Shown piece by piece: positions 1-20,887 of a DNA stretch of 61,836 bases (its first letter is position 1; each line of letters starts with the position of its first letter). A program made the position numbers and the translations under genes. The notes under the pieces were generated by a model. The model had not been told where the DNA came from. It saw only the letters and a program-made list of their open reading frames with translations, and made no database searches. Source of the DNA: Patescibacteria group bacterium (lineage in GTDB: Bacteria; Patescibacteriota; Patescibacteriia; UBA1558; GWA2-36-10). The stretch covers positions 973,377 through 1,035,212 of the forward strand of contig JAHJQF010000001.1 of NCBI GenBank assembly GCA_018819405.1. The letters are read 5' to 3'.

Positions 1-294
1 AGCCACTGCCACCACACCCCGACTAGCAATAGTCTTGATGTGAGCGCCACTCATACCGACCACCATTTTGTCTATTCTTAATCCGGTCATCCTCTCGCAT
101 TTTTCAATTGTTTCGGAAATAACCGAAACAGCCTCTTCAACCGAATTGATAGAGCCTCGTATCACACCCTGAGATGGAGTTTCAGCCGCGCCAATTATCT
201 TGAGACGACCATCGGCCAAACGTTGACCCATGACAATCCTGACGGCATTTGTACCGACATCCAGGCTAGTAATAATATCTCGATTAGTGGCCAT
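1..294 (-). CDS. ftsA: Cell division protein FtsA, N-terminal fragment (gene runs off the window edge)
   Basis: Own translation of the minus strand from ATG at 294: MATNRDIITSLDVGTNAVRIVMGQRLADGRLKIIGAAETPSQGVIRGSINSVEEAV... It has the DVGT phosphate-1 motif of actin-like ATPases and a typical FtsA N-terminus. Absent from the ORF track because it is truncated. Confidence 0.75.
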   Translation of the reverse strand, partial: MATNRDIITSLDVGTNAVRIVMGQRLADGRLKIIGAAETPSQGVIRGSINSVEEAVSVISETIEKCERMTGLRIDKMVVGMSGAHIKTIASRGVVAVA

Positions 295-362
295 TTATAG
301 ATTAAAAATTAAGACTTATAATGATTAATTATAACTAAATAATGTCTTTTTGCCAAATATTT

Positions 363-713
363 TTACCATAAAAATACTATCAAACCAATAGCAGCCGCAA
401 AAAGACTAGCTAAAAGCACCATAGCGGCCAAAAGATCTTTTATTTCCTTGGCAAAATTATGTGTCCTAGGAGCCAGCATATCCACAAGTCTTTCAATCGC
501 CGAATTGAATATCTCTAAGGACATAATAAGAGCTATTATCATCAAAACTACTACCCAATATACTTTGTCCAAATCTTTATACCAACTATAGGCAATAACA
601 ATGATAGCTATCAAAATATGTAACCTAAAAGTTTTTTCTGTTCTAAAAACTGTCTTTAAGCCACGCCAAGCGAATTTAAAATTTCTATAAAACTGCCAAT
701 CCAACTTATTCAT
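363..713 (-). CDS. dgkA: Diacylglycerol/undecaprenol kinase (prokaryotic DAGK family)
   Basis: 116 aa with three hydrophobic helices and the family motif SLEIFNSAIERLVD. It sits next to ybeY, which is the common arrangement. Confidence 0.85.
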   Translation of the reverse strand: MNKLDWQFYRNFKFAWRGLKTVFRTEKTFRLHILIAIIVIAYSWYKDLDKVYWVVVLMIIALIMSLEIFNSAIERLVDMLAPRTHNFAKEIKDLLAAMVLLASLFAAAIGLIVFLW

Positions 714-718
714 AAATT

Positions 719-1141
719 CTACTTATTTAACAAAGTCAATATTTCTTCTTGTTCCTTATTTTGTTTTTTTTCTTCAGCTAGATTTTTTTCATGATCATAA
801 CCCAAAAGGTGTAATATGCCGTGGACTGTCAAAAGCTGTAGTTCTGATTTGATGGTTTTTTTGGCTTGCTTTTTGGCCTGGTCTAGACAAATCAAAACTT
901 CACCCAAAATATCTTTACTATTTATTTGAAAAGATAAAACATCAGTTACTTTATTTTTGTTTCTATAAACATGATTAAGCTGTTTTATTTCTAAGGGCGA
1001 CAATAAAGCAATGGAAATTTCTTTTTTTAAATAAAATCTTTTTTTAAATATCTTTTCCAGATTTGCTAGCCATGAGAAATCAGCTGACAATCCTCTCTTA
1101 TCAATAACTATTAAATTAGTTTTCATCTTCCAACCAGACAA
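719..1141 (-). CDS. ybeY: rRNA maturation endoribonuclease YbeY
   Basis: Zinc motif HGILHLLGYDH near the C-terminus. The true start may be the internal MKTNLIV at 1126. Confidence 0.9.
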   Translation of the reverse strand: MSGWKMKTNLIVIDKRGLSADFSWLANLEKIFKKRFYLKKEISIALLSPLEIKQLNHVYRNKNKVTDVLSFQINSKDILGEVLICLDQAKKQAKKTIKSELQLLTVHGILHLLGYDHEKNLAEEKKQNKEQEEILTLLNK

Positions 1142-2222
1142 AACTATTTAACATCATTTCAAAACTACTATCAAAATAATTTGATTCTTCATCAAGACCC
1201 AAATCATAAGATATCAAATATATAAAATCCGAACTAACTGATAAAACCATAGTTCCGTCCAAAAGCCTATAAGCCGGGCGCCCGCCCAAACTATAATTTT
1301 CAAAATTCAAATTTCCACCTATAGTCGGTACCAGCTCCTGATAGGCCTGCTCCAAAGTTAAATTAGTGTCATTTGCCGTAGCTGATATCAAAAATGATTC
1401 CCCGCTTTCTGAATCCGGTATTACGGTCACCTGGTCAAGAGAGCCAGCCAAACCTTCGGCTAACCATTTACTTGGTCTAAAAAAAGTATAATCATAAGGA
1501 TTATTTATAAATTTAGTAACCAAGCTCGAGTCTACTAATTTCTGATTTGGTAGCAATGGATTGTACAAATTCATTATTTCTTGTCCATCACTGAAACCAT
1601 CACGATCAGTGTCTTTTAGGTTGATGTTAGTGTTGTAAGTCAATTCTTCTTCATAACTTAATCCATCATCATCAGCATCTATATTTTCTGGGATAATAAC
1701 CGTTGTATTGGTGTTTTGGTTGATATTGACGTTGGTATTTGTATTGACGTTGGTATTGACGTTGGTGTTTTGGTTTTGATTGACGTTGGTGTTTTGGTTT
1801 TGATTGACGTTGGTGTTAACGTTGGTGTTTTGGTTTTGATTGACGTTGGTGTTAACGTTGGTATTTGTATTGACGTTGGTGTTGACGTTGGTGTTTGCTC
1901 TATTTTGACTAATAAACCACAAACCTCCGGCTACCACTGCTATCACAAACATAAGAATAATAATAGAAATCAAAGCTATTTTCTGGCCACTACCCATGCC
2001 TTTTTTTCTGGGTTGACCTCCAGGGTTGGTATGGTTCTGAGCAACAAATTTACCCGGCATAGCATGGACAGTAATAATCTCTTTTTTTGCCCCCACTTCT
2101 CTTTTTATATCATCAATAGTGGCTTTTTCATTGTCTAAATTACCAGTTGTCATTGGCTTTACATCATCTTTATTGGCCAAGTGGCTAAATACCCGACCCT
2201 TTGACTCTCTTTGATCATTCAT
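1116..2222 (-). CDS. Single-pass membrane/surface protein with an (N-T-N-V)n spacer and thrombospondin-type-3-like Ca-binding repeats
   Basis: 368 aa. A cytoplasmic N-terminal region is followed by one TM helix (IALISIIILMFVIAVVAGGLWFI). Then comes a long NTNVNTNVNQNQ low-complexity run, then DADDDGLSYEEE and DTDRDGFSDGQE motifs, then a C-terminal globular region. Confidence 0.7.
   Translation of the reverse strand: MNDQRESKGRVFSHLANKDDVKPMTTGNLDNEKATIDDIKREVGAKKEIITVHAMPGKFVAQNHTNPGGQPRKKGMGSGQKIALISIIILMFVIAVVAGGLWFISQNRANTNVNTNVNTNTNVNTNVNQNQNTNVNTNVNQNQNTNVNQNQNTNVNTNVNTNTNVNINQNTNTTVIIPENIDADDDGLSYEEELTYNTNINLKDTDRDGFSDGQEIMNLYNPLLPNQKLVDSSLVTKFINNPYDYTFFRPSKWLAEGLAGSLDQVTVIPDSESGESFLISATANDTNLTLEQAYQELVPTIGGNLNFENYSLGGRPAYRLLDGTMVLSVSSDFIYLISYDLGLDEESNYFDSSFEMMLNSFVWLEDEN
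1706..1894. repeat. Coding tandem repeat (12-nt units ttgacgttggtg/a in higher-order units of about 36 nt) encoding the NTNV/NQNQ spacer
   Basis: Units such as gttttggttttgattgacgttggtgtt recur back to back. The region lies inside CDS 1116-2222. Confidence 0.85.
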
Positions 2223-2235
2223 AATTTTTTTTAAT

Positions 2236-3183
2236 TTAGCTTTGGTTAGTGTTTGTGTTTGTATTATTATTTATATTACTATTTTCATTAGTGCTGGTGG
2301 CATTCTCATTTAAACGGCCTTCTCCATTAGGATTATAACCATTTAAAACTTCCGAACCATCTGCAAAACCATCACCATCAGTATCAATATTGTTTGGGTC
2401 GGTCTTCCAAATACGAACCTCCTCATAATCTGTCAGGCCATCCATATCTGAATCATCTGATAGTGGATCGGTAAAATAAATTTCTACTTCATCCTGGTCA
2501 AATACTCCGTCATTGTCAGTATCTGGATCAAACGGGTTGGTACCCAATTCTTCTTCTTCCTTATTAGTCAGGCCATCTGAGTCATCGTCCAAATTTTTTT
2601 CATCAACCACCGCCTCATTGGTGTTGATGTTTTCATTGTTATTGATATTTTCATTGACCATCACCTCATTGGTGTTGACGTTTTCATTGTTATTGATATT
2701 TTCATTGCTTACAATAACAGACTGATTTAATCTAGGCATAATCACAAAATAATACACCGCCCCTCCAATAATTGCCAAAAGCAAAACAACTGAAACTATC
2801 ACTATTATTTTTCTCATTGGTCCCGAATTATAATCGGCATTTATGGATTGTGGTGGCCCAGCTAGTGGTGAAGGAGCTTCGGCCGATTTTGAAGGCTCTT
2901 GAGTAGTTGGCATTGTACTGCTAGAAGGCAGTCTGGTCTGTGAAAGAGGTTTTATTTTGCCAGATGCTACAGCACTTGGTTTTTCCACTGCCGGACTTGG
3001 TCTTTCGGGTGTAGGATCAACATCGCCAAACATGTCATCAATTTTTCCTGCCATAGATGGTGCAACTGGGGTATTATTTTTGGCTGTTTGGGAAACAATT
3101 GGTGTCTCAGGCATGACTGGTTGACTAGGAGATGAAACAGGTGTCTGCCCAGTTTGACTACTGTCTTTTAAATCATCAAACAT
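2236..3183 (-). CDS. Single-pass membrane/surface protein with a Pro-rich N-terminus, an Asn-rich repeat spacer and several thrombospondin-type-3-like repeats
   Basis: 315 aa with TM helix IIVIVSVVLLLAIIGGAVYYFVI. A duplicated 17-aa unit NENINNNENVNTNEVMV / NENINNNENINTNEAVV follows. TSP3-like motifs are DDDSDGLTNKEEEELGTNPFDPDTDNDGVFDQDE, DDSDMDGLTDYEE and DTDGDGFADGSE. Confidence 0.7.
   Translation of the reverse strand: MFDDLKDSSQTGQTPVSSPSQPVMPETPIVSQTAKNNTPVAPSMAGKIDDMFGDVDPTPERPSPAVEKPSAVASGKIKPLSQTRLPSSSTMPTTQEPSKSAEAPSPLAGPPQSINADYNSGPMRKIIVIVSVVLLLAIIGGAVYYFVIMPRLNQSVIVSNENINNNENVNTNEVMVNENINNNENINTNEAVVDEKNLDDDSDGLTNKEEEELGTNPFDPDTDNDGVFDQDEVEIYFTDPLSDDSDMDGLTDYEEVRIWKTDPNNIDTDGDGFADGSEVLNGYNPNGEGRLNENATSTNENSNINNNTNTNTNQS
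2613..2707. repeat. Two tandem 51-nt coding repeats (cctcattggtgttgaYgttttcattgttattgatattttcattg)
   Basis: The copies at 2613-2656 and 2664-2707 differ at one position. The region lies inside CDS 2236-3183. Confidence 0.85.
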
Positions 3184-3211
3184 AATTTAAAATATTATAA
3201 TTATTTATTAA

Positions 3212-6200
3212 TTATGGTTCTAAAGTACAATCCATATGTGCATCACCATTTCCGTCACAGAAACTAGAGTTGATAACCTTGATAGTCTGAGCAGCCCAAC
3301 CTGTAACCTCATTGGTAAATAAACCACCAGTGTCATCGGCTAATCTTTGTCCAATATCATAAATAGGAGTAAATCTTCTCAGAACTGGACTAATATGTAC
3401 AGCCGGATCAGATAATCTGGCCGCTTGTGAGGCTGAATAGAGAACATCAGGTAAACTTGCATCATAATCTTCGTTTTCATGAATAATTGAATTTCCTCCG
3501 CAATAAGCGGCTTCATCAGATACTGGAAGTACCACTCTCTGGTATCCAGGTTTCCAATTATACCCCTCTATAATTTTACTAATAGCATAACCCCAGTTTT
3601 CCAAACGTCCGGCAAACTGATCAGAATTATTGCTATGGCATGCTTCATCAAAATCTGGTATATCACCATTTATAGTGACTGGCACATTTATATCATTACT
3701 TGTATTGTCATAAAAGCTCAAATACCTAACCTTTGGATAATTTACATTATCATTTAATGCACAGTCTGTATAAAGAGCTCTAAATACCTGCAAAGCTTCG
3801 TCCAGCCAGCCACCGTTATTAGGGAATATAGATTCAATATCATCAGCATCATCATCCGTCAGATACACAGGTGTATATGGACGATCTGGTGTGTCGGTAC
3901 CATCACTATCGTCATAAGCCACTCCTCCATCATTGTCACCCAGTACATATATAGTAATACGATAGTCAATCTCCTGATGATCCTCCTCTAAATTTGCAAC
4001 CACTCCCTGAGTAGCAGTACACAATGCTTGCGCATCACCTCTCATACTGCCAGACATATCAAAAACATAAACTAAATCAATATTTTTTTCTATTTCATAA
4101 GCTGGATCAAATCCAGTGTCGCAGTCTTCATAGCTCTGGACTACACCATCTCCGCAGTATCCCCCGGTATTTAGACAGTCACTACACTCATATTGGAAGC
4201 TGGGGTCTGAAAATATAGTAATATTATCTCTCTGACGTGGCCATGGATAAGAAAATTCTGGATCAGCCACATTCCAATCACAGCCTTCACCAAATAGAGT
4301 TTGTTGGATATTATCTCCACAATAGCCACCACCTGAAGCACTCTGTTGACATCTATTATTACTCGTCATATCACAAGTATAAGTACGGGTGAAATCAGAT
4401 TCTGCCGGAGTCGGCCTGTCGGGATAATCAAGGCCATCACAAATTTCATTGTAATCACTCTGTACTTCGCCGTCTCCACAGTAGCCACCAACACGGCCGT
4501 CACAATCATAATCATCACAGACATACTGATTTATTAGAGAAGTCTCATTTGGAGAATAGAGGTCGCCAGCTATAGCAGGATCGCAGGTTTCTTCATAAAT
4601 ATCTTGAATAAAACCATCACCACACCAACCCGCTTCAGTGGCAGTACAGCGACCATAATCATTGCCAGTGTCAAAATCCCAAAAAATACCAGACATACGG
4701 CACTCATATTGATTAAATTTTGAAGAATATTCTGGCAGAGGCGTTTCATAGTTGGTATCACATATTTCCTGAAAAGCATATTCTAATATTCCATTACCAC
4801 AATAATCACCCGTAAATTGGCACTGATTGCTGCAAGTGTATGTATTGGCCGGACCAGAAGTATCTGGACCGGGCGCCACATAACCAGCATAATCACACTG
4901 CTCTTCTGGAAAATTTACTTCACCATCGCCACAGGCTCCAGTATAAGGATCACCGACAGTACATTCTACCACACAACTATTACTACAACGCACAGCCCCG
5001 CCCTCTGTACAATCCCAAGTGTCCAAGCCATTAGGATTGGCACTATTATCACACTCTTCTACGCCGGGTGTCCAAATTCCATCTCCGCATAAAGCCGCCG
5101 GATATGAGCCCCCATCACCCGTACACATCACTTGACAACCACTACAACTGATAGAATCTCCATCATCACAAGAATACCCAGACGGCAGATTGCCATCACA
5201 ATTTTCATAAAAAGTTTGTACTGCGCCATCGCCACAATAACCTCCACACTGGCTAGCAGTAAATGGTGCTTGGGATCTATCTATAGGATACCACTGACAA
5301 CCAATAGAGTTGCCGACTGAGTCAAGTGAACCAGGAGGATAGCAACCAATAGTCTGCTCATTCCACCAAGGATGATTGCCATTGGTAAGAATATCCGGAT
5401 TAGAGTTGGGAGCATCTTGAGAGCAAGCATAAGACCAAAAGTTACCATCACACTCCTCTTGAACCCAACGTCCGCCAGAATTGACACAATCAACAGAATT
5501 ATCACAATTAGGGCAAGAAATTGTACAATATGGTTCTGTATCAACAATGCCATTACCACAGTTTGGCCAAGCAGCTGCTCCTGGAGAATTTTGTACTGCA
5601 TCATCACAATATATACCCAAATCGGACGCTAAACCATAAAGAGTAGACCAGCCTGACGGTACAAGACTACTGGCAAAAGTAACACCGCCAGTATCATACA
5701 TATCATATTCAAAATTAGCTCGTAGAGTAAAACCTCTACCAAAATCAAGCGAGTTATAATAATAGATTAAAGAATTTGTCGGACAGAAAAATTCTAAAGT
5801 TGATTCAGACCAACAGGTATCTGTATTATACGGATCACTACAACCATCTATATTAAAACGATTTATAGGGTCACTTGGGATAGACATACCCAAAGCACTT
5901 CCTAATGTAGCTGTCCAGGACGGCCAGCGACTATTTGTCAACCCTTGTAAATATGAACCAGCGTTCAATGGTGGGTATTGTTTTATACATTCTCCCCCTG
6001 GACAATCCGTAGAGTCATTACAGGATATACTACTATCATAGCTACAGCTGGCATGCGCCTCACCGTATGACATAATAGATCTTTGTATAGCTATCAAATC
6101 TGAAAGCCTCTTGGTGTCACGTCGTAATTTTAATTTCCTAGCCTCACAATAATCATTTTCTCCTGGACAATCATAATCTGTAGAGCAGGATAAACCGGAA

Positions 6201-9200
6201 ATATTACATATATTAGCTGTATTTTCTGTAATGTTTATATTTAGTTTAAAATTAGAAACCATTTGATTAAAAATATTTATAGTACTTGGCCTAGCCCCTA
6301 TATTGTGAGCTATTATATAAATATTTGTGTATATATTTGTAGTTACGTTACTAGCAGCAATATATAAAGTGTTGCCCACTTTCAGTGCCTCATAACCATC
6401 AATTGATACTAGAGAGCCTGTATCAGATGGATTTGGGGCGTTTTTCAAATACCAATCCATTACTGATAAGTGCTCTGAATTTTGTATCACTCTAATACCA
6501 ATAATATCCACCAAGGAATGACTGGCATTAGTATATAAGGTGATTGGCCCAGCCCAATTCGACGATGGAAAATCATCACAAGTGTTGCTTGTGGCCGCTA
6601 TCCTATAGCGGTATTCTCTATCCAGTTCCAAATCTTCAGGATCAGTCCAAGAGTTAGCACCAGCTGGTGCTGTAGCATAATTTTGCCAATCAACATCATC
6701 ACCAATCAACATTCTTTGAACTAAAAACCCGCTGGTCGGTCCATTAAGATCTGGATCATAGTTTGGTTGATTCCAAGATAAATGCGCATTTATACCATCA
6801 AATGTGATGGCAAAATTACGTGGCGTAACTGGACCGCATAAAAGCACACCATCTTCAAAAGCAAAGGCTGGTTTATTAAACAATTTAGTAATTTTTTGCC
6901 AGACAGACTCTTTTGTCTCTGTCTGATAATCATCATAATAAGCCAAACTACCAAAAGCATTAGTACCAGACTTAACTGTAAGATAATTTATTGTAGAAAT
7001 AAATTCACGATATACGTCAGGATCATCTGGATTATTTAATGAAGGAATAGCTAAATAAGGTAATATATTATCACCTGGTAAGCCTGAGTACTGGCAATAA
7101 TAAGTGGAAAAATTGGTACTAGGCATCTCCGGATCAGTCCAAGGATAAGAAGATAAGTTTGGCCATGGCTCTTCACAAAGCATCACTTCTACCAAAGCAG
7201 TGTCTCGGACTATATGCCCTGGATCATCTGTAGAATTTTCTACATCAACAGACAATACAGCTTGGCCATTTGTAGGTTGGGCAGTACCGTCTGTCTCTTG
7301 GTCACTGTCTAGCACAGAAAATACTACATCATCACTAAGTTGGGTAGAATCCCAAGTATAATCCAAAAATGTACCCGACAATATCGCACCACTAATATCA
7401 TAAACAGTAGCTATATAAGTATGTTGATTTCCGCCAATAGCCGGACGGCTATCTCCCGGACAATTATTAATTCCCGCACAATTAAACAAATCACTATCAA
7501 TATATAAATCATTGCGACTTATATCTGCACTGTGTACCTGACAAATACGGTCCCCAGCTGTAAACATCCATCCCAGTCCTCCCATTGGGGTGGTAAATAA
7601 TCCAGTCGGGTCAAGTGATACGCCATTGACACTAACAATAGCATCAGTATTAGCAAAAGAAATCCAATAATTCAAGTTTGGATTAAGATTTATATCCGGA
7701 TTAAACATAGCCTGAGTACCATTGGTAGTTTCCCTAAATGTCCAAGTACCAGTTACTTCACAAGTGCCGGCACATTCTTCATAAAAACGACCTTGCGAGA
7801 TAATACTAGCTCTATTCATAGTCTCGCTAAATTCTATATTTGGAGCAATATTGAGACAAATATTGGTCTCAAGATGATCAGGATTGATATCCACCACCTC
7901 TGGCGTCGGATATACAACAGGACCGGAGATTATAATATTAATATCTCCTGGGTCAGTGGATACTGGAGGACTTGTCCCCTCAGCTACTGTAACATTTACC
8001 TCCGTATGTTCACCGCCTACTAATGGTGGTGAGGAATTAGTGGTAACATCAGTTGTTTGAGTCAACGGACTACTAAACACAGCTATGTTTGGCGTGTCAA
8101 AAAACCAATTGTAGTTACAAGTAGGACAATTTATGGGCTCTTCACCACAAACCACGCTGTCATGGATAGTCTGTGCTATATAGTTACCCAAAGGCTGACT
8201 AGCTCCAGCTGTGACATTTTGTGGTTCTACTCTAGCCCTATCAACTCCGCAATCAGCGGCACCAATACCAAAAGTATAGGTATAACCAGCGCCATTGTAT
8301 AAGAAGCTTAAATCTGTATTTTGGATAGTACCATCTAAAACCACTCTGTAGTCATGTCCGAGCACAAACGGAGTATGATCTATCAACACTTGTCTATTTC
8401 CAATTGTAGTCAACAAACCGGTAATTTCTGTGCCTAATGTGTCATCATAGATATGGTAATTACCAGGCAGTGAGACGGTTCTTAAATCTGAATTAAAATA
8501 TATAGTAACATCAGCATTGCTACATGATCCATCACAATCTGGATAATGATTGGTCACAAATAAAGGATCCACAGTGCCGGCTGTATCTATTTCAAACACT
8601 CCACTATCAGGCTCCACAGTGTCTCCATGTTCATTTATCAAATTAACCATTACCTCAACTGTACCAGCATCTGTAGTCTGATTGTCCTGTACCTCTACAG
8701 ATTGCAAAATATTGGAACCAACGATAGAAGCAAACCCGTTGGAAAGGCTCCAATCATAAGTACAAGCAGTACAATCAAAAGTTACGTTACTACATTCTTC
8801 ACTGCTCCAGGTACCATAAGCTTGATATACCCAAGATTCGCCTGGCGTAGTAATGCGCCTGTAATCAGGACTTACCAGTGCTCCCGTAGCAAAACACTCA
8901 CTGTCGCCTGTACCAAAATTCCAATTTATGTCACTCCTTAATACACTTCCGTCAATTCCCTCAATGCCAGCTGGGACCGTGACCGTAAAATTATCATTTC
9001 GGCCAATGCCAGTATAATTAAGTTTTATACATTGAGGATTTGATGGCCCCATCCAGTCCGCACCATTAAAATGTTCACCTGTAGCGGCGCTAAGTATAGA
9101 AAATCCAGTGGCTGGTATACTGGTTGACTCTACATCTTTATCAAAACAGACTCTGACCAAGGAAGTAGTACAAACCGCTCCGCAAGTTGGCTCAACCAAT

Positions 9201-12200
9201 GTATGATGTAAGTCAAGATCCAGTGCGTTGCCTCCACTTACATTGATGGTCAAATTAGTGCTAGCGCTAGCCGGACCATAGTCACCGCTTATATCCAAAT
9301 CTATAGGCGCCGTACCATTTGGGCCAAGAGGACGCGCCCAAACCTGCCTAGCACCTGTATCAAGTGTAAAATAAGTAGCTGGTTCATCAGTGCTCCAAGT
9401 ATAATTACAAGGACCATCATCACACTGTATAAAATCTGCTCCGCAAATTCCAACTTCTCCATAAGTATAAGCAGTATACAATATGTCATTTAAATTGGTG
9501 ACCGTCAGTCCATCCGGACGTATATAAGCACCGGCCAGCTCACAATTTTCATCGCCGACTGAAAAATTCCAAGATTTCTCAGCTCCCAAAGAATAACTAT
9601 ATGTATTTATCAAATCTGCTGACAATATTACTTTATAATTTTCTTGGGGTATAAAATCAATATGATTTATAGTCAATAATTCATCAGATATTGTATAGCC
9701 ATTTACATAATTTAAACTATTGTCATAAGTGTTGCAATTTGTATCTGTACACCTATAAATTGCTATTTGATCAGGATATGTGCCGTCAATATCAATAATA
9801 CTGTCAAGCTGAGTTGAAAATATGGCCCAAACTCCGGCATTAAGACAAGAATCATTACATCTTGGTCCATAATCAAGTAAACTGAGTGTTGGAGCCAAAA
9901 TCATAGACTGCGATGTACCACTTATTGCAAAATCTAGATTTTGGGCATTGATGCTTGCATAGTTTGGATCAGGCAAAAACTGAGTAGCATTTGGACCACC
10001 CTGCATTATATTGTAACCTCTATTTATATTTTCATTATCTACATCATTAAGAAGCAGTGTGGCATAACTGGCAATCGGAGCCGGATCAGGATCCAAAGAC
10101 CAAGCCCAATCATAATTACCACCACAAACATTACAATTATCAGCTACTGGCGTAGAATAAAATTCTCTCTCAGACCCTACATATATATCTGAAACATTTC
10201 TTTGCGGGCTGACTACTACATTAGACACCTCACAGATATTAGTATCATTTCTGACTCTAAAATACCAATCAAAATCTGGATCTTCCATGGTAGGATCCCA
10301 AACATCACCGCCCCAAGATGACTTAAATGATCCCAACACTACTCTGTACCATCTTCCGGCATCTAGCCTAAAAGCTTCGTCTAGACCTGGATTAAATTCT
10401 ACACCCTCTCTACTACTATTATGATTTATAATACTTAAATTCCCATCTAAAGAAGTAACCTCACACGATCCTGGAGCAAAACCAGTTAAGTCAGGATCAT
10501 GGTTACAGGCATAAACTCTAAAATTGTCAGAGTCCAACAAATCGGCATCTACAACATTTCTGGTAAACAAAATTGAAATATTAGCATCAGTAAATGCATC
10601 TACAGATGACGGATAAGAAATAAATCCCGTAACAGCGTCTTCCCACTCATGACCATCAGGCCAGGGTGATGGGGACTGTACATCAGTATCACAATTATAA
10701 TTATAATGAATACCAAAAGGATCATCTTCAGTATAAAAATTCCAAGAATAATAACAAGCATTTATATCCACACCACAACTGTCAGTACAATAATCTCCGG
10801 TTGCCTCCGGACAACAGACATAAGACTCTCCATAAGCTGCCTGGCAAGATTCAGTGTTTTGACACTCACCAACTGCAAAATTTACTTCATTACTTGTATC
10901 TCCGCCCGAATCTTGGACATAGACTGGTCCTGTGACAGCTCCAGCTGGCACAGTGAGATTTAATACCTGATTGTCATTCCAACTGGCTGGCGGTATTACT
11001 CCGACAGATTGTTCGTTGTAAAAATATACACTGCCAGGAATAGCTCCAAAATTTTCACCAAAAATATCTACATCATCATAACCGGCCGGACCGTTGTTTG
11101 GATCAATCAAACAAATCCCAGGTGCCGGATCACCAGACTGTATTTCAAACGAATATGACTCACTGATAGCCGAGTCTGACCCCCTGACAACCACCACTTC
11201 ATAATTTGTATCCAAAGTCCAGGCAGCCTCCGGTACCTTGACTAGTATCTGACTGTCTGACCAAAAACTATCACCACACATTACCGGGAAGGAGTCATCT
11301 CCTCGGACATTCAAACCCGACGGGTCAAATCTGACCTCACCTGAACTGCCAAAGCCAGAGCCCATGATAGTAATATATTGCCCGACCGGGCCGCCGGCTG
11401 GTGATATCTCATTTATAATAGGTAGCCCACCCGAAGAAATAATAGCAGTAAAAGGATATGGGTTACTAATTTCTCCAGCGTCAGTATGCATAGTTACCCC
11501 AAAATAACCGGCTACATTTGGCACCTCAGCAATAGCATAAGTACCAGGTGGTGTAACATCTGTGACACTGGTGTCATAGCTGACGACCGTATCAAAATAA
11601 GCTTGGTCAGTAGTTTGAAAACCAATACCATCTATAGTTATATCCTGGCTATAATATCCTTCGCTGTCGCTTAGAGCACAGATACTTGGTCGGATAATCG
11701 TATCATTTCTTTCAAAGGGATAAGGATCTGATTCCAATCCACCAACTGCAGCACTCTGGACCACTGTCAGATCTCCGACACCAACTACAGCATCAGCCGG
11801 TACCCCAATTATTATATAGTTATTTGTCCAAATATTTACACATGACCCATTGCTAAGATAAGAAGGTAAATCACCTTCAACCCAACCTGGACCTGCTAGT
11901 GATTCAAAACGAACCACACCCATATCATCACCAAAATTATAACCAAAAATAGTTATCAAATTACCCACTGCCCCATCTTCTGGCGTAATATTTTCAATAA
12001 CAGGCGCATCATCTCCTCCTGTGCCACTACCAGCTGTACAGACATCTTCTTCTAGACACGAGTAGTCTGCATAACAACAACCAGAGGCACAATTACTGTC
12101 TGTATCACAAAGTACAACAAAAGGAAGTGAATCCCACTCTGTGCCAACTGTCACTGTCACCTCGCTGGAAATGGCATTTGGCAAATTGGCCAAATCAAGA

Positions 12201-13168
12201 GGCACATTCATATTAATTTGAGTATCTGTCCAATCTCCTATTCCTAGTCCTAAAGTAGTATTATCCAATGTCACTACCGCTGCACCATCCCAACCTTCCA
12301 TAGAAATATTTTCCTCAAAATCAGTAAAACCGGTGCCCGTTGCCTGGACATCAATACTGGTCCCACTAAATGCTTCTTCAGGAGATAAACAATTTAAATT
12401 TAAAGTAGCCAGTCCTGGAGTAACTACAAATGAAATAGCGTCATCGGTAATATTTCCCAAATCATTGGTCAAAAATACATCATAGACCCCCTCAGCCAGA
12501 GTATCTGGCACCCTAACTCTGACCCAAGTATCTTTCCACTGTGGATCAGCACATACCACTAACTCGACAGTAAATCTTGTACCGCTTGAACGCTCCTCCA
12601 ATTGCACCATACCAAGACTATCCGGACTGCTATTTCCACTTACTGGCAACCTATCAAAGTGATAACCATAAATTGTCAGGTTACTTCCGGCTGGTCCGTT
12701 TTCACGATTGAGTTTACAAATACGCGGATCAGTAGTATCTGCCGGTGCATCACAGCCGATCGTACCACCCGGTGGTATTGTAGTACCACCACCTGGACCA
12801 CCAGCCCCCGTTTCATTATATAGTGATTGCAACACAAATCTAGAAATTGCATAAGCTGAGACAATAATTACCAGTCCTATCACGGCGCTGATTATAAGTA
12901 GCTTGGCACGTTGTACTTTGTCGGAATTTCCCTGAGAGGTCATCCACAAGAACCCTCCGTAGAGTATAATCAGTACTGCCAAGATACCCAAAAATCCCAA
13001 AAAGATATTGATTATCCCAGCCACCGTATCTTCTATAGAGCGGCTACCCAAAGCTATATTTGTACTGGCCAAATCATTTATACCAAAAACATCTGAAGCC
13101 AATGCCTTGTGCACAGACACAAACCCTAGAGAAAATATGCTAATTAATACAGAAAATAATTGTCTCAT
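3212..13168 (-). CDS. Giant (3,318 aa) secreted protein: a TrbC/VirB2-like pilin membrane hairpin followed by IPT/TIG, Ig-like modules, FN3, CGDG Cys-rich repeats and a C-terminal vWA domain
   Basis: Uninterrupted 9,957-nt ORF. Signal-like N-terminus ...VHKALA/SDVFG. Two TM helices flank TSQGNSDKVQRAK. Six GPxGxxxxIxGxxFG-type IPT motifs. Modules ending W-x-F followed by CxxCxYxW. An FN3-like segment LSWNQP...YRYRIAA. Nine CGDG/CGNG...CD repeats. MIDAS-like motif DLVYVFDMSGSM. Confidence 0.9.
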   Translation of the reverse strand: MRQLFSVLISIFSLGFVSVHKALASDVFGINDLASTNIALGSRSIEDTVAGIINIFLGFLGILAVLIILYGGFLWMTSQGNSDKVQRAKLLIISAVIGLVIIVSAYAISRFVLQSLYNETGAGGPGGGTTIPPGGTIGCDAPADTTDPRICKLNRENGPAGSNLTIYGYHFDRLPVSGNSSPDSLGMVQLEERSSGTRFTVELVVCADPQWKDTWVRVRVPDTLAEGVYDVFLTNDLGNITDDAISFVVTPGLATLNLNCLSPEEAFSGTSIDVQATGTGFTDFEENISMEGWDGAAVVTLDNTTLGLGIGDWTDTQINMNVPLDLANLPNAISSEVTVTVGTEWDSLPFVVLCDTDSNCASGCCYADYSCLEEDVCTAGSGTGGDDAPVIENITPEDGAVGNLITIFGYNFGDDMGVVRFESLAGPGWVEGDLPSYLSNGSCVNIWTNNYIIIGVPADAVVGVGDLTVVQSAAVGGLESDPYPFERNDTIIRPSICALSDSEGYYSQDITIDGIGFQTTDQAYFDTVVSYDTSVTDVTPPGTYAIAEVPNVAGYFGVTMHTDAGEISNPYPFTAIISSGGLPIINEISPAGGPVGQYITIMGSGFGSSGEVRFDPSGLNVRGDDSFPVMCGDSFWSDSQILVKVPEAAWTLDTNYEVVVVRGSDSAISESYSFEIQSGDPAPGICLIDPNNGPAGYDDVDIFGENFGAIPGSVYFYNEQSVGVIPPASWNDNQVLNLTVPAGAVTGPVYVQDSGGDTSNEVNFAVGECQNTESCQAAYGESYVCCPEATGDYCTDSCGVDINACYYSWNFYTEDDPFGIHYNYNCDTDVQSPSPWPDGHEWEDAVTGFISYPSSVDAFTDANISILFTRNVVDADLLDSDNFRVYACNHDPDLTGFAPGSCEVTSLDGNLSIINHNSSREGVEFNPGLDEAFRLDAGRWYRVVLGSFKSSWGGDVWDPTMEDPDFDWYFRVRNDTNICEVSNVVVSPQRNVSDIYVGSEREFYSTPVADNCNVCGGNYDWAWSLDPDPAPIASYATLLLNDVDNENINRGYNIMQGGPNATQFLPDPNYASINAQNLDFAISGTSQSMILAPTLSLLDYGPRCNDSCLNAGVWAIFSTQLDSIIDIDGTYPDQIAIYRCTDTNCNTYDNSLNYVNGYTISDELLTINHIDFIPQENYKVILSADLINTYSYSLGAEKSWNFSVGDENCELAGAYIRPDGLTVTNLNDILYTAYTYGEVGICGADFIQCDDGPCNYTWSTDEPATYFTLDTGARQVWARPLGPNGTAPIDLDISGDYGPASASTNLTINVSGGNALDLDLHHTLVEPTCGAVCTTSLVRVCFDKDVESTSIPATGFSILSAATGEHFNGADWMGPSNPQCIKLNYTGIGRNDNFTVTVPAGIEGIDGSVLRSDINWNFGTGDSECFATGALVSPDYRRITTPGESWVYQAYGTWSSEECSNVTFDCTACTYDWSLSNGFASIVGSNILQSVEVQDNQTTDAGTVEVMVNLINEHGDTVEPDSGVFEIDTAGTVDPLFVTNHYPDCDGSCSNADVTIYFNSDLRTVSLPGNYHIYDDTLGTEITGLLTTIGNRQVLIDHTPFVLGHDYRVVLDGTIQNTDLSFLYNGAGYTYTFGIGAADCGVDRARVEPQNVTAGASQPLGNYIAQTIHDSVVCGEEPINCPTCNYNWFFDTPNIAVFSSPLTQTTDVTTNSSPPLVGGEHTEVNVTVAEGTSPPVSTDPGDINIIISGPVVYPTPEVVDINPDHLETNICLNIAPNIEFSETMNRASIISQGRFYEECAGTCEVTGTWTFRETTNGTQAMFNPDINLNPNLNYWISFANTDAIVSVNGVSLDPTGLFTTPMGGLGWMFTAGDRICQVHSADISRNDLYIDSDLFNCAGINNCPGDSRPAIGGNQHTYIATVYDISGAILSGTFLDYTWDSTQLSDDVVFSVLDSDQETDGTAQPTNGQAVLSVDVENSTDDPGHIVRDTALVEVMLCEEPWPNLSSYPWTDPEMPSTNFSTYYCQYSGLPGDNILPYLAIPSLNNPDDPDVYREFISTINYLTVKSGTNAFGSLAYYDDYQTETKESVWQKITKLFNKPAFAFEDGVLLCGPVTPRNFAITFDGINAHLSWNQPNYDPDLNGPTSGFLVQRMLIGDDVDWQNYATAPAGANSWTDPEDLELDREYRYRIAATSNTCDDFPSSNWAGPITLYTNASHSLVDIIGIRVIQNSEHLSVMDWYLKNAPNPSDTGSLVSIDGYEALKVGNTLYIAASNVTTNIYTNIYIIAHNIGARPSTINIFNQMVSNFKLNINITENTANICNISGLSCSTDYDCPGENDYCEARKLKLRRDTKRLSDLIAIQRSIMSYGEAHASCSYDSSISCNDSTDCPGGECIKQYPPLNAGSYLQGLTNSRWPSWTATLGSALGMSIPSDPINRFNIDGCSDPYNTDTCWSESTLEFFCPTNSLIYYYNSLDFGRGFTLRANFEYDMYDTGGVTFASSLVPSGWSTLYGLASDLGIYCDDAVQNSPGAAAWPNCGNGIVDTEPYCTISCPNCDNSVDCVNSGGRWVQEECDGNFWSYACSQDAPNSNPDILTNGNHPWWNEQTIGCYPPGSLDSVGNSIGCQWYPIDRSQAPFTASQCGGYCGDGAVQTFYENCDGNLPSGYSCDDGDSISCSGCQVMCTGDGGSYPAALCGDGIWTPGVEECDNSANPNGLDTWDCTEGGAVRCSNSCVVECTVGDPYTGACGDGEVNFPEEQCDYAGYVAPGPDTSGPANTYTCSNQCQFTGDYCGNGILEYAFQEICDTNYETPLPEYSSKFNQYECRMSGIFWDFDTGNDYGRCTATEAGWCGDGFIQDIYEETCDPAIAGDLYSPNETSLINQYVCDDYDCDGRVGGYCGDGEVQSDYNEICDGLDYPDRPTPAESDFTRTYTCDMTSNNRCQQSASGGGYCGDNIQQTLFGEGCDWNVADPEFSYPWPRQRDNITIFSDPSFQYECSDCLNTGGYCGDGVVQSYEDCDTGFDPAYEIEKNIDLVYVFDMSGSMRGDAQALCTATQGVVANLEEDHQEIDYRITIYVLGDNDGGVAYDDSDGTDTPDRPYTPVYLTDDDADDIESIFPNNGGWLDEALQVFRALYTDCALNDNVNYPKVRYLSFYDNTSNDINVPVTINGDIPDFDEACHSNNSDQFAGRLENWGYAISKIIEGYNWKPGYQRVVLPVSDEAAYCGGNSIIHENEDYDASLPDVLYSASQAARLSDPAVHISPVLRRFTPIYDIGQRLADDTGGLFTNEVTGWAAQTIKVINSSFCDGNGDAHMDCTLEP

Positions 13169-13272
13169 TTTTATATTTACCCCACACCTTTTATAAAGCG
13201 CAGGAAACTTACTAATTATACCCCTAACTTTTTATTTAAAAGGTGCGGGGTGAATTTTTATAAAATTTAAAA

Positions 13273-14928
13273 TTATGGCGTACCAATTGCCCCAGTGCAT
13301 GGTCCTCCCGAACAATCTGGTGTGGTACAAGTGCAAGAATTATCTCCTGCCTGACAAAGACAAGGATACCAACAATTTTGTCTGGAATCTTTAATACCAG
13401 AGCTAAGAGTTGGTGTATATATAGTAGTAGGAGAAAATTTGTCATGATAAATATTTATAACATTTCCCCCACTCAAACCAGTCCAATAATTTAAAGCCCC
13501 GACCGAGCTGTCCAAAGAAATATTACTAGAATTTACTGAACTAGAAAGTAACTCTTCACTAAACTCTACGCTAATTGGTGCGTTGAGGTCGACGTCTGTT
13601 ATTTCTTCCATTTGAGTGATAAAAGGTGGTGTTAAATCCAAAACATTATTGGTGGTAAAAGACCAAACATAATCACTACCAGAGCAACTGGTTCCACAAT
13701 CTAAGACATTACCGGCCATATCAACTATTGCCTCTTCTCTATCCGCCACCAAATCATCAGTAGCTGTGCCTGATACCAGACCATTTATAGTTTCGTCACC
13801 TGGTAAACAAAATACAGAACCGCCGCAAGAATTTTCTCCACAAAATTGATCAGTAATAAACTCTACCGTACGATATTGATTGGATATTGTATAGCGTCCG
13901 CCTAAATTTCCAGAGATAGAACCGCTGACAATGACATTGTCAAAACCATCTGCGGTAAAACCAGCTGCTGAAATAGAATCCACAGCTTCGGAAAAATTGA
14001 TCTGCACAGCACTATTTTTTGGATTATTTGTTGATCCATTAGGAGGCACAATATAAGTCACTGTCGGTGGAGTCAAATCAAGCTCAGTTCCTACTGTAAA
14101 ACGCCAACTATAAGCCCCGCTGACAAAAGCACCTGTGCCGGCTAATGTCTGGATATTACCTAATTGCATAGTATGTCTGACATCAGCACTAGGACTACCC
14201 AGATAAGTAGTACTATCGCCATATGGATTTATCAAAAATTCATCCTGACCCTCTCTGGTGGTCGCATTGTAAGGAATAAAAATAATCGGCAAATCAACTC
14301 CTGTAATTGCGTCAGGATTACCTTGAGCCAAAAGACTTATATAATCTGAATTAACTACACAATCAACACCTGGTGTGCAAGCTGTATCTTCTACCATGTA
14401 GGCAATATCAATCGGCTCCTCAAAAGTCAGATAAATATTGGTATTTCTTGGCACACCTACTGCATCTCTAGGAGGATAGTGGCTCTCCAGTGCCCCAGCT
14501 CCCAAACCCACACCACCAATAGCTCCCCCGCCACCTGAGCCACCACCTGTACCAAAGGTATTATCATAGCCTTCACGCAGGACAAATCTGGCTATGGCAT
14601 AAGAAGACAATACTATAACAAGACCAATCACACCATTTATAATTATCTTCTTAGCTCTATCAATTTTTTCGGTGTTACCTTGGGATGTCATCCATATAAA
14701 TCCACCGTATAGAATTATCAAAGTTGTCAAAATCCCCAAAAATCCCAAAAAGATATTGACAATGCCGGCAATAGTTTCTTTTAGGTCTTTTGTACCCAAA
14801 TTTACACCGGACGAAGCAAAATCATTGACACCAAATACATCGGCCTGAGCAGGGGCGCTCAAAGACAACAAAAAAATAACTGCAAAAAAGAAAATAAATA
14901 ATACAGTTATTTTTTTAGATTTTAGCAT
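13273..14928 (-). CDS. TrbC/VirB2-like pilin-domain protein followed by bacterial Ig-like (SbsA/Big_5-type) domains and a Cys-rich C-terminus
   Basis: 551 aa. The N-terminus (signal, DVFGVNDFAS, IAGIVNIFLGFLGILTTLIILYGGFIWMTSQGNTEKIDRAKKIIINGVIGLVIVLSSYAIARFVL) is closely paralogous to the N-terminus of the giant protein. Later segments LDLTPPTVTYIVPPNGS...INFSEAVD and LDLTPPFITQ...VEFSEEL. Tail CWYPCLCQAGDNSCTCTTPDCSGGPC. Confidence 0.85.
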   Translation of the reverse strand: MLKSKKITVLFIFFFAVIFLLSLSAPAQADVFGVNDFASSGVNLGTKDLKETIAGIVNIFLGFLGILTTLIILYGGFIWMTSQGNTEKIDRAKKIIINGVIGLVIVLSSYAIARFVLREGYDNTFGTGGGSGGGGAIGGVGLGAGALESHYPPRDAVGVPRNTNIYLTFEEPIDIAYMVEDTACTPGVDCVVNSDYISLLAQGNPDAITGVDLPIIFIPYNATTREGQDEFLINPYGDSTTYLGSPSADVRHTMQLGNIQTLAGTGAFVSGAYSWRFTVGTELDLTPPTVTYIVPPNGSTNNPKNSAVQINFSEAVDSISAAGFTADGFDNVIVSGSISGNLGGRYTISNQYRTVEFITDQFCGENSCGGSVFCLPGDETINGLVSGTATDDLVADREEAIVDMAGNVLDCGTSCSGSDYVWSFTTNNVLDLTPPFITQMEEITDVDLNAPISVEFSEELLSSSVNSSNISLDSSVGALNYWTGLSGGNVINIYHDKFSPTTIYTPTLSSGIKDSRQNCWYPCLCQAGDNSCTCTTPDCSGGPCTGAIGTP

Positions 14929-19517: not shown

Positions 19518-19525
19518 TAATATTT

Positions 19526-20887
19526 ATGTCTAATTTATATAATGTAGCTATAGTTGGAAGAGTCAATGTCGGTAAATCTAGTTTATTCAACAAGCTAATC
19601 TCCAATCGTAAGGCTATCACATCATCAGTAGCTGGTACTACCAGGGATCGTAATTATGCTGTCTGCTCTTGGAGAGATATTGATTTTAGTTTGGTAGATA
19701 CAGGCGGACTAGAAAGACAATCTGATGATGACATAGATCAGCAAATAATAGAGCAGGCTAAAGTGGCTATAGATGAAGCTGATCTTGTTTTATTTGTAGT
19801 AGATACAAAAACAGGTATTATGCCAGCTGATAATGAATTGGCCAAGAGCCTAAGAAAATCCAACAAACCAATACTCTTGGTGGCAAACAAAGCAGACAAC
19901 CAAAGAACCAGACAGTCAGTCGCTGAATTTTACAAATTAAACCTTGGTGAGCCCTGGCCAGTGTCTGCTCTCAACGGTACTGGTACTGGTGACATGTTGG
20001 ATGAATTGGTCATAAAACTCAAAAAAATAAAGAAAAATAAAGTAAAGAAAACTTTTGATACAGATGAAAAAAAGATAAATGTTTCTATCGTTGGAAAACC
20101 AAATGTTGGAAAATCTTCCTTGGTAAATGCTATACTAGGAGAAAAAAGAGTGATAGTATCAGCTATTCCACATACCACTCGTGATGCCCAAGACATAGCA
20201 TTTAAATACAAAAATAATAAAATTGTTTTTGTCGATACTGCTGGTATGAGAAGAAGAAGTCGGAAGTCTACGGATCCTTTTGAAAAACAATCTGTTGATC
20301 AAAGCTTGGAAACCATCAAAAAATCAGATATTGCTATACTGGTTACTGATGTTTCCAAAAAACTAACTTGGCAAGAAAAACACCTTATTGATGAAGTATC
20401 AAGCTCCGGATTAGGTCTTATCATAATTGCCAACAAATGGGATTTGATCCCAGACAAAGACACCACCACTGTGCAAGAGTACAATAAGTACTACAAAGGT
20501 TTTTTTCCTTTCATTACTTGGGCACCAATTGTTTATATTTCAGCCAAAGACAATATCCGCATAAGCAAAGTCTTGGATTTGATTTTGGAAATACATGAGC
20601 AAAGAAATAAAGTAATTTCTGATACTATCTTGGATAAATTTTTGAGAAATATCATTAGAAAACATAAACCTTCTCGAGGCAAAGGCACTATGCACCCTTA
20701 TATTTATAGTCTTGTCCAGACTGGCAGTAATCCGCCTCGCTTTGCTATCAAAACAAACTTCAAATCTGATTTACATAGTTCATATTTGAGATTTATAGAA
20801 AACAATCTAAGATATAAATTTGGCTTTTCAGGCACTCCTGTCAAAATAAATGTAGTAAAAAGCCAAAATACTAAAGACAAAAAATAA
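19526..20887 (+). CDS. der: Ribosome-associated GTPase Der/EngA (two GTPase domains plus a KH-like domain)
   Basis: Two P-loops (GRVNVGKSS and GKPNVGKSS) and the DTGG/DTAG motifs. Confidence 0.95.
   Translation: MSNLYNVAIVGRVNVGKSSLFNKLISNRKAITSSVAGTTRDRNYAVCSWRDIDFSLVDTGGLERQSDDDIDQQIIEQAKVAIDEADLVLFVVDTKTGIMPADNELAKSLRKSNKPILLVANKADNQRTRQSVAEFYKLNLGEPWPVSALNGTGTGDMLDELVIKLKKIKKNKVKKTFDTDEKKINVSIVGKPNVGKSSLVNAILGEKRVIVSAIPHTTRDAQDIAFKYKNNKIVFVDTAGMRRRSRKSTDPFEKQSVDQSLETIKKSDIAILVTDVSKKLTWQEKHLIDEVSSSGLGLIIIANKWDLIPDKDTTTVQEYNKYYKGFFPFITWAPIVYISAKDNIRISKVLDLILEIHEQRNKVISDTILDKFLRNIIRKHKPSRGKGTMHPYIYSLVQTGSNPPRFAIKTNFKSDLHSSYLRFIENNLRYKFGFSGTPVKINVVKSQNTKDKK

Follow-up and report, generated by a model that had tools for sequence, protein, structure and literature searches.

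What function unites four adjacent genes for large membrane-anchored proteins in a streamlined bacterial genome, and does their pilin-like sequence tie them to a type IV secretion system (T4SS)? The question is raised by a 61,836-nt stretch of contig JAHJQF010000001.1 from a Patescibacteria group bacterium (hereafter the window), for which a sequence-only reading had proposed a cluster of four consecutive minus-strand genes encoding proteins of 551, 3,318, 315 and 368 amino acids (aa). We refer to these proteins as P1, P2, P3 and P4, respectively, and recovered their open reading frames (ORFs) exactly where that reading had placed them:

13273..14928, minus strand: P1, ORF of 551 aa
3212..13168, minus strand: P2, ORF with translation, 3,318 aa
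2236..3183, minus strand: P3, ORF of 315 aa
1116..2222, minus strand: P4, ORF of 368 aa

Our preferred answer, which we put forward tentatively, is that P1–P4 constitute a conserved surface-protein module of ABY1-class Patescibacteria (Komeilibacteria and allies), probably co-transcribed, in which an adhesion or contact fibre is rooted in the membrane by helical hairpins that assemble together. The module is not part of a T4SS gene cluster.

Synteny, not co-orientation, is the real evidence for the cluster. Because 36 of the 42 long ORF segments in the window lie on the minus strand, the shared orientation of P1–P4 is almost uninformative; GC skew is negative nearly everywhere in the window. 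The tight co-directional string also runs on past the module, with lepB-hisS-rpsU-yqeY upstream of P1 at equally short gaps and ybeY-dgkA after P4. The order and spacing of the proposed cluster stand; its co-orientation is not in itself evidence, and the string to which it belongs includes housekeeping flanks. The spacers are indeed short, at 104, 28 and 13 nt for P1/P2, P2/P3 and P3/P4, and a consensus scan placed no terminator-like site in any of them, all minus-strand matches falling within coding regions. The reported overlap between the 3' end of P4 and ybeY amounts to 26 nt with the TTG start of ybeY or to 11 nt with the ATG start of an independent gene call.

Gene calls were looked up for seven related contigs in which P1 identity is 36–56%. 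All seven show yqeY followed by P1 and then by a protein of 2,520–3,556 aa with TIG and Big_5 domains, and the T4SS_pilin domain was detected in most of these proteins. Contigs that reach far enough continue from the giant to a TSP3 protein, a protein of 330–440 aa, ybeY and dgkA. The P2 orthologs are collinear with P2 over almost their whole length. On a larger scale, the best 80 of at least 557 GTDB loci were annotated by script, using phmmer with the window proteins, a hidden Markov model (HMM) of the hairpin and a regular expression for TSP3 motifs. Among the names attached to these 80 loci are Komeilibacteria, Falkowbacteria, Uhrbacteria, Magasanikbacteria, Paceibacter and 'Parcubacteria group', and the following counts rest on the 75 species-representative loci with a callable P1. 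A same-strand ORF with the pilin domain lies directly downstream of P1 in 64 of 72 loci and within four genes of it in 67 of 72; complete copies of this second protein have a median length of 2,880 aa, many others being cut by the end of the locus. P1 and P2 are held together more tightly than their upstream surroundings, since yqeY is the upstream neighbour of P1 in just 38 of 74 loci. The genes inserted there include relA/spoT, hflX and other large surface proteins, never T4SS genes. The gap between P1 and P2 in relatives has a median of 3 nt and is mostly 0–40 nt, with many overlaps of 1–4 nt; adjacency combined with a near-zero gap is the pattern expected of a co-translated pair. Further downstream, one of the three genes after the giant encodes a TSP3-motif protein of 190–420 aa in no fewer than 27 of 40 loci, which is a lower bound given that many of the next ORFs are incomplete, and ybeY-dgkA is present after the cluster in every locus that is long enough. 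Loci under at least four candidate phyla-level names share the order P1, giant, TSP3 protein, protein of ~330–430 aa, ybeY. The prospect that the genes might be syntenic in no relative, which the sequence-only reading had raised against itself, clearly does not apply, as P1 and the giant, the TSP3 proteins and ybeY keep their order in dozens of species-level genomes.

The two largest proteins had been described as sharing a pilin-like N-terminus, and they do: the first ~118 aa are common to P1 and P2 with 54% identity and 81% positives (E 1e-37), the remainder of the two sequences being unrelated. A signal-peptide-like helix opens this region and is followed by two hydrophobic helices that a short basic loop connects. 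The helix-joining loop, TSQGNTEKIDRAKK, is conserved, as is an A-x-A site (LAQ / AQA) just before the mature N-terminus. Hydropathy places the transmembrane (TM) helices at approximately aa 55–73 and 95–113 in P1, after the signal peptide, and at aa 51–69 and 90–108 in P2, after the signal-peptide-like helix. The pilin-type domains map as follows:

14584..14793, minus strand: pilin-type domain of P1, aa 46–115, a PF18895 match with two membrane helices and a basic loop between them
12833..13045, minus strand: pilin-type domain of P2, aa 42–112, PF18895 with 31.3 bits when the full sequence is scored and 35.0 bits when only the N-terminal chunk is

Whether these domains deserve the label 'TrbC/VirB2-like' that had been given to them depends on the family. 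Against the gathering score of PF18895 (T4SS_pilin), 26.6 bits, both P1 (37.9 bits) and P2 (31.3–35.0 bits) pass. Against that of PF04956 (TrbC/VirB2), 27.9 bits, both fall short, with 20.5 bits for P1 and 13.4–17.4 bits for P2; many P1 orthologs do have a precomputed PF04956 match. Scores for NCBIfam NF045849, a pilin-like family of mycoplasma integrative conjugative elements (ICEs), are 36.5 bits for P1 and 33.8 bits for P2, below the cut-off of 40. Both proteins have the topology of VirB2-type pilins, i.e., a signal peptide and two helices joined by a short basic loop. However, mature VirB2-type pilins are small (~70–130 aa), P1 and P2 being 551 and 3,318 aa long, and the T4SS genes with which such pilins are encoded (virB3/prgI, virB4, virB6 and a type IV coupling protein, T4CP) are missing from the window and from 10 kb on either side. 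A search of PDB sequences with the hairpin profile matched no solved VirB2 or TraA pilin. P1 and P2 are therefore not classical VirB2/TrbC pilins, as the PF04956 threshold, the size and the T4SS gene context all fail to agree. The T4SS_pilin part of the earlier label stands, while the strict 'TrbC/VirB2' part is too strong because PF04956 is below threshold in both proteins.

No other part of P1 is as well conserved across its family as the hairpin, whose mean identity is 61% compared with 43–49% for the Ig-like (immunoglobulin-like) domains. That the hairpin is the slowest-evolving part, and is 54% identical between P1 and P2 despite their unrelated ectodomains, points to a specific interaction, one in which the hairpins would engage one another, further pilin-type subunits or a machine, rather than to a mere lipid anchor. 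The domain is also widespread. When 1.84 billion representative proteins were scanned in full by HMMER with the hairpin of P1 (98 aa), 31,401 clusters matched at E<=1e-3, and at E<=1e-10 the number was 6,018. Among the best 150 matches, 40 are shorter than 200 aa, some of them evidently P1-like fragments (e.g., P0157); in 47 the hairpin is a single N-terminal domain of a longer protein, 19 of these being 2,000–5,873 aa long; and the remaining 63 contain 2–16 tandem hairpins per polypeptide at ~85–140 aa per unit. Examples of the tandem form are P0156 (seven units in 606 aa), P0165, P0184 and P0211. Such tandem 'poly-pilin' proteins are not mentioned in the T4SS papers that we searched.

Beyond the hairpin, P1 comprises a Gly-rich linker, three Big_5 Ig-like domains (80 bits over three stretches) and a Cys-rich tail:

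13369..14508, minus strand: ectodomain of P1, aa ~141–520, three Big_5 beta-sandwich domains, from Pfam and the AlphaFold2 (AF2) model

The AF2 model, built from 61 homologs, has a predicted local distance difference test (pLDDT) score of 84 and a predicted TM-score (pTM) of 0.70. It shows a helical hairpin (aa 49–80 and 86–124, pLDDT ~90), a disordered Gly-rich linker, the three beta-sandwich domains and a disordered Cys-rich tail. Foldseek searches with the full model were dominated by the Ig domains and identified generic tandem Ig arrays only, including the Ig domains of the L,D-transpeptidase LdtMt2, the S-layer protein SbsC (E 8.7e-8) and an archaeal S-layer, that of Nitrosopumilus, with TM-scores of 0.13–0.27. 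The protein index holds 383 homologs of P1, nearly all of 480–650 aa with PF18895 and Big_5, and at least 557 relatives were found in GTDB species-representative genomes. P1 represents a full-length, single-copy ortholog family across many genera; named homologs come from Candidatus Komeilibacteria and other Patescibacteria.

P2 is an acidic giant with 121 Cys and about four acidic residues per basic residue. Downstream of its hairpin the following regions were delimited:

10859..12727, minus strand: IPT/TIG-type Ig-like region, aa ~148–770, from Pfam TIG
7613..9175, minus strand: Big_5 Ig-like region, aa ~1332–1852, from Pfam Big_5 matches at aa 1332–1420 and 1756–1852
5684..6526, minus strand: conserved middle domain of ~280 aa, aa ~2215–2495, from homologs and AF2
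4124..5560, minus strand: nine Cys-rich repeats (CG[DN]G...C) ~50 aa apart, aa ~2537–3015, from a regular expression; DUF4215-like
3215..4096, minus strand: C-terminal domain of ~290 aa, aa ~3025–3318, with a DMSGS motif at aa 3037 resembling a metal-ion-dependent adhesion site (MIDAS)

The TIG matches cover aa 148–247 and two stretches within the chunk of aa 331–730, the best being aa 583–675, and a weak fn3 match lies at aa ~2125–2199. The middle domain has 29 homologs, located in separate proteins of 330–1,000 aa, and is found in most giant orthologs. A search with P2 aa 2100–2700 gave only the 330–1,000-aa proteins and not the giant orthologs, which we recovered from loci next to P1 homologs. 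AF2 models the middle domain with pLDDT 80–95 across 280 residues, and Foldseek found no match for it among PDB folds (best E 0.053), so that it may represent an undescribed fold. The domain holds a motif, RDTKRLSDL...YP...DP.N, that is reminiscent of type IV pilins. We considered and rejected its assignment as a pilin head of the type IV pilus or type II secretion (T4P/T2SS) kind, as no pilin is among the top Foldseek hits; a T2SSG match (E 0.042) occurs in one of 30 homologs. The Cys-rich repeats give weak DUF4215 matches (E 2.7e-4 and 0.04), and PF13948 and PF11617 are found in homologs.

The C-terminal domain of P2 keeps its DxSxS, SDE and TGG motifs in five orthologs. Searches of PDB sequences by phmmer and by profile, and of Pfam with five orthologous segments, gave VWA signals below threshold only (TssR_VWA, E 0.076–0.081; the VWA protein PTMP1 in the PDB, E 0.54). 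The ortholog in one relative (L005) ends in a canonical Pfam VWA domain (PF00092, PF13519), and a divergent VWA-like head is a plausible candidate for the sequence at the end of P2. Domain content varies among the loci of relatives, where He_PIG, BACON, Laminin_G_3 and Calx-beta-type domains are neighbours. Pfam gave no RTX or sortase signal in the cluster proteins.

P3 and P4 had been credited with a common layout built on DxDxDGxxDxxE repeats, and motifs of the TSP3 kind number four in P3 and two in P4:

2344..2589, minus strand: TSP3 repeats (Dx[DN]xDG) of P3, aa 199–280, motifs at aa 199, 221, 244 and 267; PF18884
1578..1679, minus strand: TSP3-type motif pair of P4, aa 182–215, DADDDG at aa 182 and DTDRDGFSDGQE at aa 204

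P3 has a Pro/Ser-rich N-terminal part, a TM helix at aa 126–144, an Asn-rich spacer, four TSP3 repeats and an Asn-rich tail, and TSP3_bac (PF18884) scores 64.8 bits over four stretches against a gathering score of 25 bits. P4 has an N-terminal part, a TM helix at aa 82–100, a spacer of NTNVNT repeats, two TSP3-type motifs and a C-terminal domain of ~140 aa. It has just two Dx[DN]xDG motifs, one of which fits the full DxDxDGxxDxxE pattern; the pair is invariant in the family alignment. P4 itself has no significant Pfam match, and its match to TSP3_bac is weak (11.9 bits, E 0.21), as it is in all seven family members (best 5.8e-5). The resemblance between P3 and P4 is limited to the 46-aa TSP3 pair, at 52% identity, and in both proteins basic residues precede the single TM helix. 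With one TM helix in each of P3 and P4, and a signal peptide and two TM helices in each of P1 and P2, all four proteins have the signal or TM anchor that had been proposed for them. Of the families to which the sequence-only reading had pointed, T4SS_pilin (P1 and P2), TSP3 (P3) and TIG (P2) are borne out, and VWA appears below threshold only.

The C-terminal half of P4 has six detectable homologs, all encoded just before ybeY. A PsbP-like identity for this domain was tried and rejected, with no Pfam support in seven family members. By BLAST, P4 resembles two other window proteins, encoded at 26574..27662 and 55949..56992 on the minus strand, in the TSP3 pair only. Both are predicted single-pass membrane proteins with a PsbP_2-like C-terminal domain, and the TSP3 motif pair of P3 and P4 recurs in the protein at 55949..56992; surface proteins with a TM helix and TSP3 repeats therefore form a family that is scattered over this genome and extends beyond the cluster. 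The Asn-rich spacer of P4 (aa ~108–175, window 1698..1901) is encoded by a near-perfect tandem DNA repeat of the AAT/ACN/GTN type, corresponding to the NTNVNT units. The six homologs have spacers of very different lengths, suggesting that slippage drives this variation.

In the module that we favour, P1 and P2 would be exported by Sec and then cleaved by signal peptidase. The VirB2-type two-helix hairpin would hold them in the cytoplasmic membrane with both ends outside, and the Gly-rich linker would connect it with an ectodomain displayed on the cell surface. P1 would form a short stalk of three Ig-like domains. P2 would form an acidic, disulfide-rich and calcium-dependent fibre of ~3,200 aa made of TIG, Big_5 and fn3-like domains, the middle domain and the nine Cys-rich repeats; at its distal end the terminal MIDAS-motif (VWA-like) head would probably mediate metal-ion-dependent binding. 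P3 and P4 are predicted to be single-pass proteins with the N-terminus inside and the C-terminus outside, presenting calcium-binding TSP3 repeats on flexible Asn-rich spacers. Since the hairpin is more conserved, and more alike in P1 and P2, than a plain anchor needs, it probably lets these proteins assemble mutually or with other pilin-type subunits, and would do so independently of a T4SS.

Several considerations weigh against this proposal: (i) The C-terminal domain of P4 is detectable in few relatives (six database proteins, five loci). A similar-sized and similarly laid-out protein fills the position in other relatives, and P4 is the least secure member of the cluster. (ii) The block is syntenic with housekeeping genes too, with ybeY-dgkA-ftsA-ftsZ downstream and, in half of the genomes, lepB-hisS-rpsU-yqeY upstream, so part of the conservation may be plain vertical inheritance. 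(iii) The VWA assignment of P2 in the window is not significant. (iv) The Ig-like arrays of P1 equally suit a structural, S-layer-like role. (v) Strong conservation of the hairpin could equally reflect dependence on a T4SS encoded elsewhere. (vi) We infer both the co-transcription of the module and its surface location.

Dependence on a T4SS is the core of a first alternative, in which a VirB2-type pilus contains P1 and P2 as modular subunits, either minor ones or ones at the tip: a T4SS with its genes elsewhere (VirB4 and partners) would extract the hairpins from the membrane and polymerise them with small VirB2-like pilins, so that Ig stalks and a giant adhesin are displayed on the filament or at its tip. 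The sequence-only reading had found no VirB4, VirB6 or VirD4 gene, and we likewise detected none of these, nor any type IV pilus assembly gene, in the 61.8-kb window, where P1 and P2 are the only pilin-HMM matches. T4SS genes are also absent from the 10 kb past either end (~80 kb covered in all, out of the 1,035,872-bp metagenomic contig ENA ERZ27247117 k141_591135 to which the window belongs) and, as far as annotated, from the surroundings of the P1-P2 pair in related loci. In one relative (L006) a gene for a TrwB/TraG-type T4CP lies at 9735..11666, ~8 kb downstream of ybeY and past ftsAZ and nrd genes; no T4CP gene occurs in the equivalent stretch from the window's own genome (L011). In another (L061), radA (18264..19646) directly follows the P1-giant pair, and as T4SS loci of ABY1 commonly include radA, recG and comF (PMC12102498), this locus might lie near a T4SS.

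The literature makes a T4SS in this genome probable. Quinonero-Coronel et al. 2025 used PF18895 and PF04956 to identify VirB2-like pilins in 1,948 VirB4-positive Patescibacteria assemblies, with a pilin near virB4 in 1,135 of the 1,948 and arrays of 2–11 pilin genes; no adhesins such as PrgB were detected in that dataset (PMC12102498). The part of Table S1 of that survey available to us assigns Komeilibacteria to GTDB class ABY1 and lists every Komeilibacteria genome in it, including those behind L012 and L032, as VirB4-positive. In Southlakia, the essential T4SS cluster itself contains predicted pilins (Wang et al. 2023, PMC10633639), and a 2025 review regards these pilins as a unique trait of monoderm T4SSs (PMC12857230). 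Because related Komeilibacteria are listed as VirB4-positive, and in view of this pilin literature, a T4SS is probably encoded elsewhere in the genome. The searchable literature does not mention fusions of the pilin domain to large ectodomains, and a study of giant genes (bioRxiv 10.1101/2023.11.21.568195), which is on Omnitrophota, does not cover this architecture.

The pilus alternative is thus consistent with the VirB4-positive relatives in that part of Table S1 and with the essential arrays of VirB2-like pilins in patescibacterial T4SS clusters (PMC10633639, PMC12102498). It also accounts for the above-threshold PF18895 and sub-threshold TrbC and NF045849 matches, for a hairpin common to P1 and P2 and more conserved than their ectodomains, and for the T4CP gene 8 kb from the module in L006. 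However, no T4SS gene is adjacent in any of the regions covered, the module occupies a fixed core-genome position amid housekeeping genes, and the hairpin profile finds no solved VirB2 or TraA pilin by sequence. Moreover, we know of no VirB2 pilin with a C-terminal extension of hundreds to thousands of residues. We therefore regard the participation of P1 and P2 in a T4SS pilus as unlikely.

The Ig-like folds suggest a second alternative, in which the proteins are structural components of the envelope: P1 would be a membrane-anchored S-layer-like or spacer protein and P2–P4 calcium-stabilised scaffolding, expressed constitutively with the neighbouring housekeeping and division genes. The fold matches of P1 to SbsC, the Nitrosopumilus S-layer and L,D-transpeptidase Ig spacers, its single-copy, full-length orthologs in many genera and the fixed position between rpsU-yqeY and ybeY-dgkA-ftsA-ftsZ all agree with such a role, and TSP3 repeats and an acidic composition would suit calcium-bridged lattices. 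However, the Foldseek matches are to generic Ig arrays with the low TM-scores given above, and a fibre of 3,300 aa with a terminal MIDAS-type domain and variable domain content is more like an adhesin under diversifying pressure. A purely structural role accordingly seems improbable to us.

That the four surface genes form no functional unit and merely adjoin in a slowly rearranging, strand-biased genome, the common N-terminus of P1 and P2 being a widely used anchor, is very unlikely: the minus-strand excess among long ORFs, the equally syntenic housekeeping flanks, the TSP3 membrane protein at 55949..56992 and the thousands of protein clusters of many architectures headed by the pilin-type domain speak for it, but the P1-P2 adjacency outlasts the upstream flank despite insertions of relA/spoT, hflX and large surface genes, the gaps are mostly 0–40 nt with frequent overlaps of 1–4 nt, and the full gene order recurs across the candidate phyla-level names.

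A further, bolder reading can be considered, although we think it rather doubtful. The VirB2-type hairpin might be a general assembly and display module in ABY1-class Patescibacteria, by which proteins of up to 3,000–5,800 aa are rooted in the single membrane and co-polymerise with small or tandem pilin units into a pilus-like stalk bearing adhesin fibres. If so, this would be a surface organelle unlike those described for T4SSs or pilus systems, and these uncultivated cells might use it to contact their hosts.

Giant Ig-repeat adhesins include those of the RTX type (LapA, MpIBP) and SiiE, and VWA-tipped pilus adhesins include RrgA and PilY1. The module would work much as giant Ig-repeat adhesins do, and also as modular pilins with added domains do. 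P1 and P2 resemble the adhesins just named in having a membrane-proximal anchor, a long Ig-like stalk, an acidic composition of the calcium-dependent kind and a distal domain of a ligand-binding type (VWA/MIDAS in some orthologs). They differ in the anchor: an N-terminal VirB2-type hairpin behind a Sec signal peptide takes the place of a retention module for type I secretion (T1SS), an LPXTG signal for sortase or a type IV pilin. With classical TrbC/VirB2/TraA pilins (PF04956) they share a long signal peptide, two hydrophobic helices and a short charged loop, but they score below the PF04956 cut-off, are 5–30 times longer and lack virB3/virB4 neighbours. A further comparison is with the patescibacterial VirB2-like pilins (PMC12102498, PMC10633639), which belong to the same phylum and have PF18895, a signal peptide, a two-helix hairpin and a basic loop; as adjacent paralogs, P1 and P2 also resemble the reported arrays of 2–11 pilin genes (PMC12102498). 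However, those pilins are treated as small proteins, in Southlakia within the T4SS cluster, whereas in P1 and P2 the domain is the N-terminal ~120 aa of proteins whose genes hold a fixed place among housekeeping genes, ~80 kb around which contain no T4SS gene. The hairpins of P1 and P2 align with NF045849 (the Mbov_0395 family of mycoplasma ICEs) over 72 of 80 profile positions, and its host is likewise a minimal-genome monoderm; the scores are under the 40-bit cut-off, and NF045849 is a small ICE-borne protein.

The module is also reminiscent of the Pam pili of candidate phyla radiation (CPR) bacteria (Troman et al. 2026, bioRxiv 10.64898/2026.03.03.709456), which are CPR-specific surface filaments with Ig-like folds, Sec signal peptides, a conserved operon and a proposed role in host contact. 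Pam pilins, which occur mainly in Saccharimonadia and Microgenomatia, are joined through donor-strand exchange with PapD-like chaperones that are anchored in the membrane. The only Pam TM helices are the C-terminal ones of PamC, PamD and PamR, and the text of that paper contains neither T4SS nor Pfam. In contrast, the P1–P4 cluster is found in ABY1-class genomes and has no chaperone-type Pfam match, and the paper's description sets it apart from Pam.

The pilin family PF18895 and its abundance in Patescibacteria are already known. What is new, judging from the searchable literature, is that two large surface proteins, a conserved pair encoded at a core-genome locus, have the hairpin as their N-terminal module, and that giant and tandem architectures are widely distributed. 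VirB2-like pilins are regarded as a peculiarity of the patescibacterial T4SS, which is otherwise of the Gram-positive type, and our results suggest that counts of 'VirB2 pilins' based on PF18895 mix small pilins, tandem poly-pilins and giant fusions. How Patescibacteria, which may hold a large share of bacterial diversity, recognise and hold their hosts is a central open question. P1 and P2 are concrete candidate host-contact proteins for ABY1, a class without cultivated members, and the pair makes it possible to test whether or not pilin-type anchors are linked to T4SSs.

The 104-nt spacer between P1 and P2 has a property of its own:

13169..13272, minus strand: P1-P2 spacer, which can fold into a long hairpin enclosing the Shine-Dalgarno region of P2

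The predicted fold has a free energy of -30.9 kcal/mol (z -4.4), and none of 200 shuffles was equally stable. No U-tract follows this RNA hairpin and it was not called as a terminator. It is not conserved in relatives, in line with their shorter spacers; one of them (L001) has a different, GC-rich hairpin of 150 nt in the same place (11582..11731, -40.8 kcal/mol). These structures could be inserted palindromic elements or serve local translational control.

The remaining genes of the window are housekeeping genes, among them gyrB, pheST, those for ATP synthase, metG and clpB. Rfam and tRNA scans of the window were empty, and a PHROGs comparison gave nothing useful. The 10 kb past the left end contains ftsA, ftsZ, nrdR, prfA and comEC, and the 10 kb past the right end (L092) contains ileS, recO and tgt, together with two genes for possible surface proteins. 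One of these, at 7869..8654, encodes a 261-aa protein with a faint prepilin N-methylation motif, possibly a type IV pilin; the other, at 1..572, encodes a 1,114-aa surface protein with Peptidase_M23 and PKD domains. Finally, many of the third-party annotation (TPA) assemblies among the GTDB representatives that carry this patescibacterial locus are titled 'uncultured Gammaproteobacteria bacterium' (L015–L017, L022, L026–L027 and many more), which looks like a systematic mislabel.

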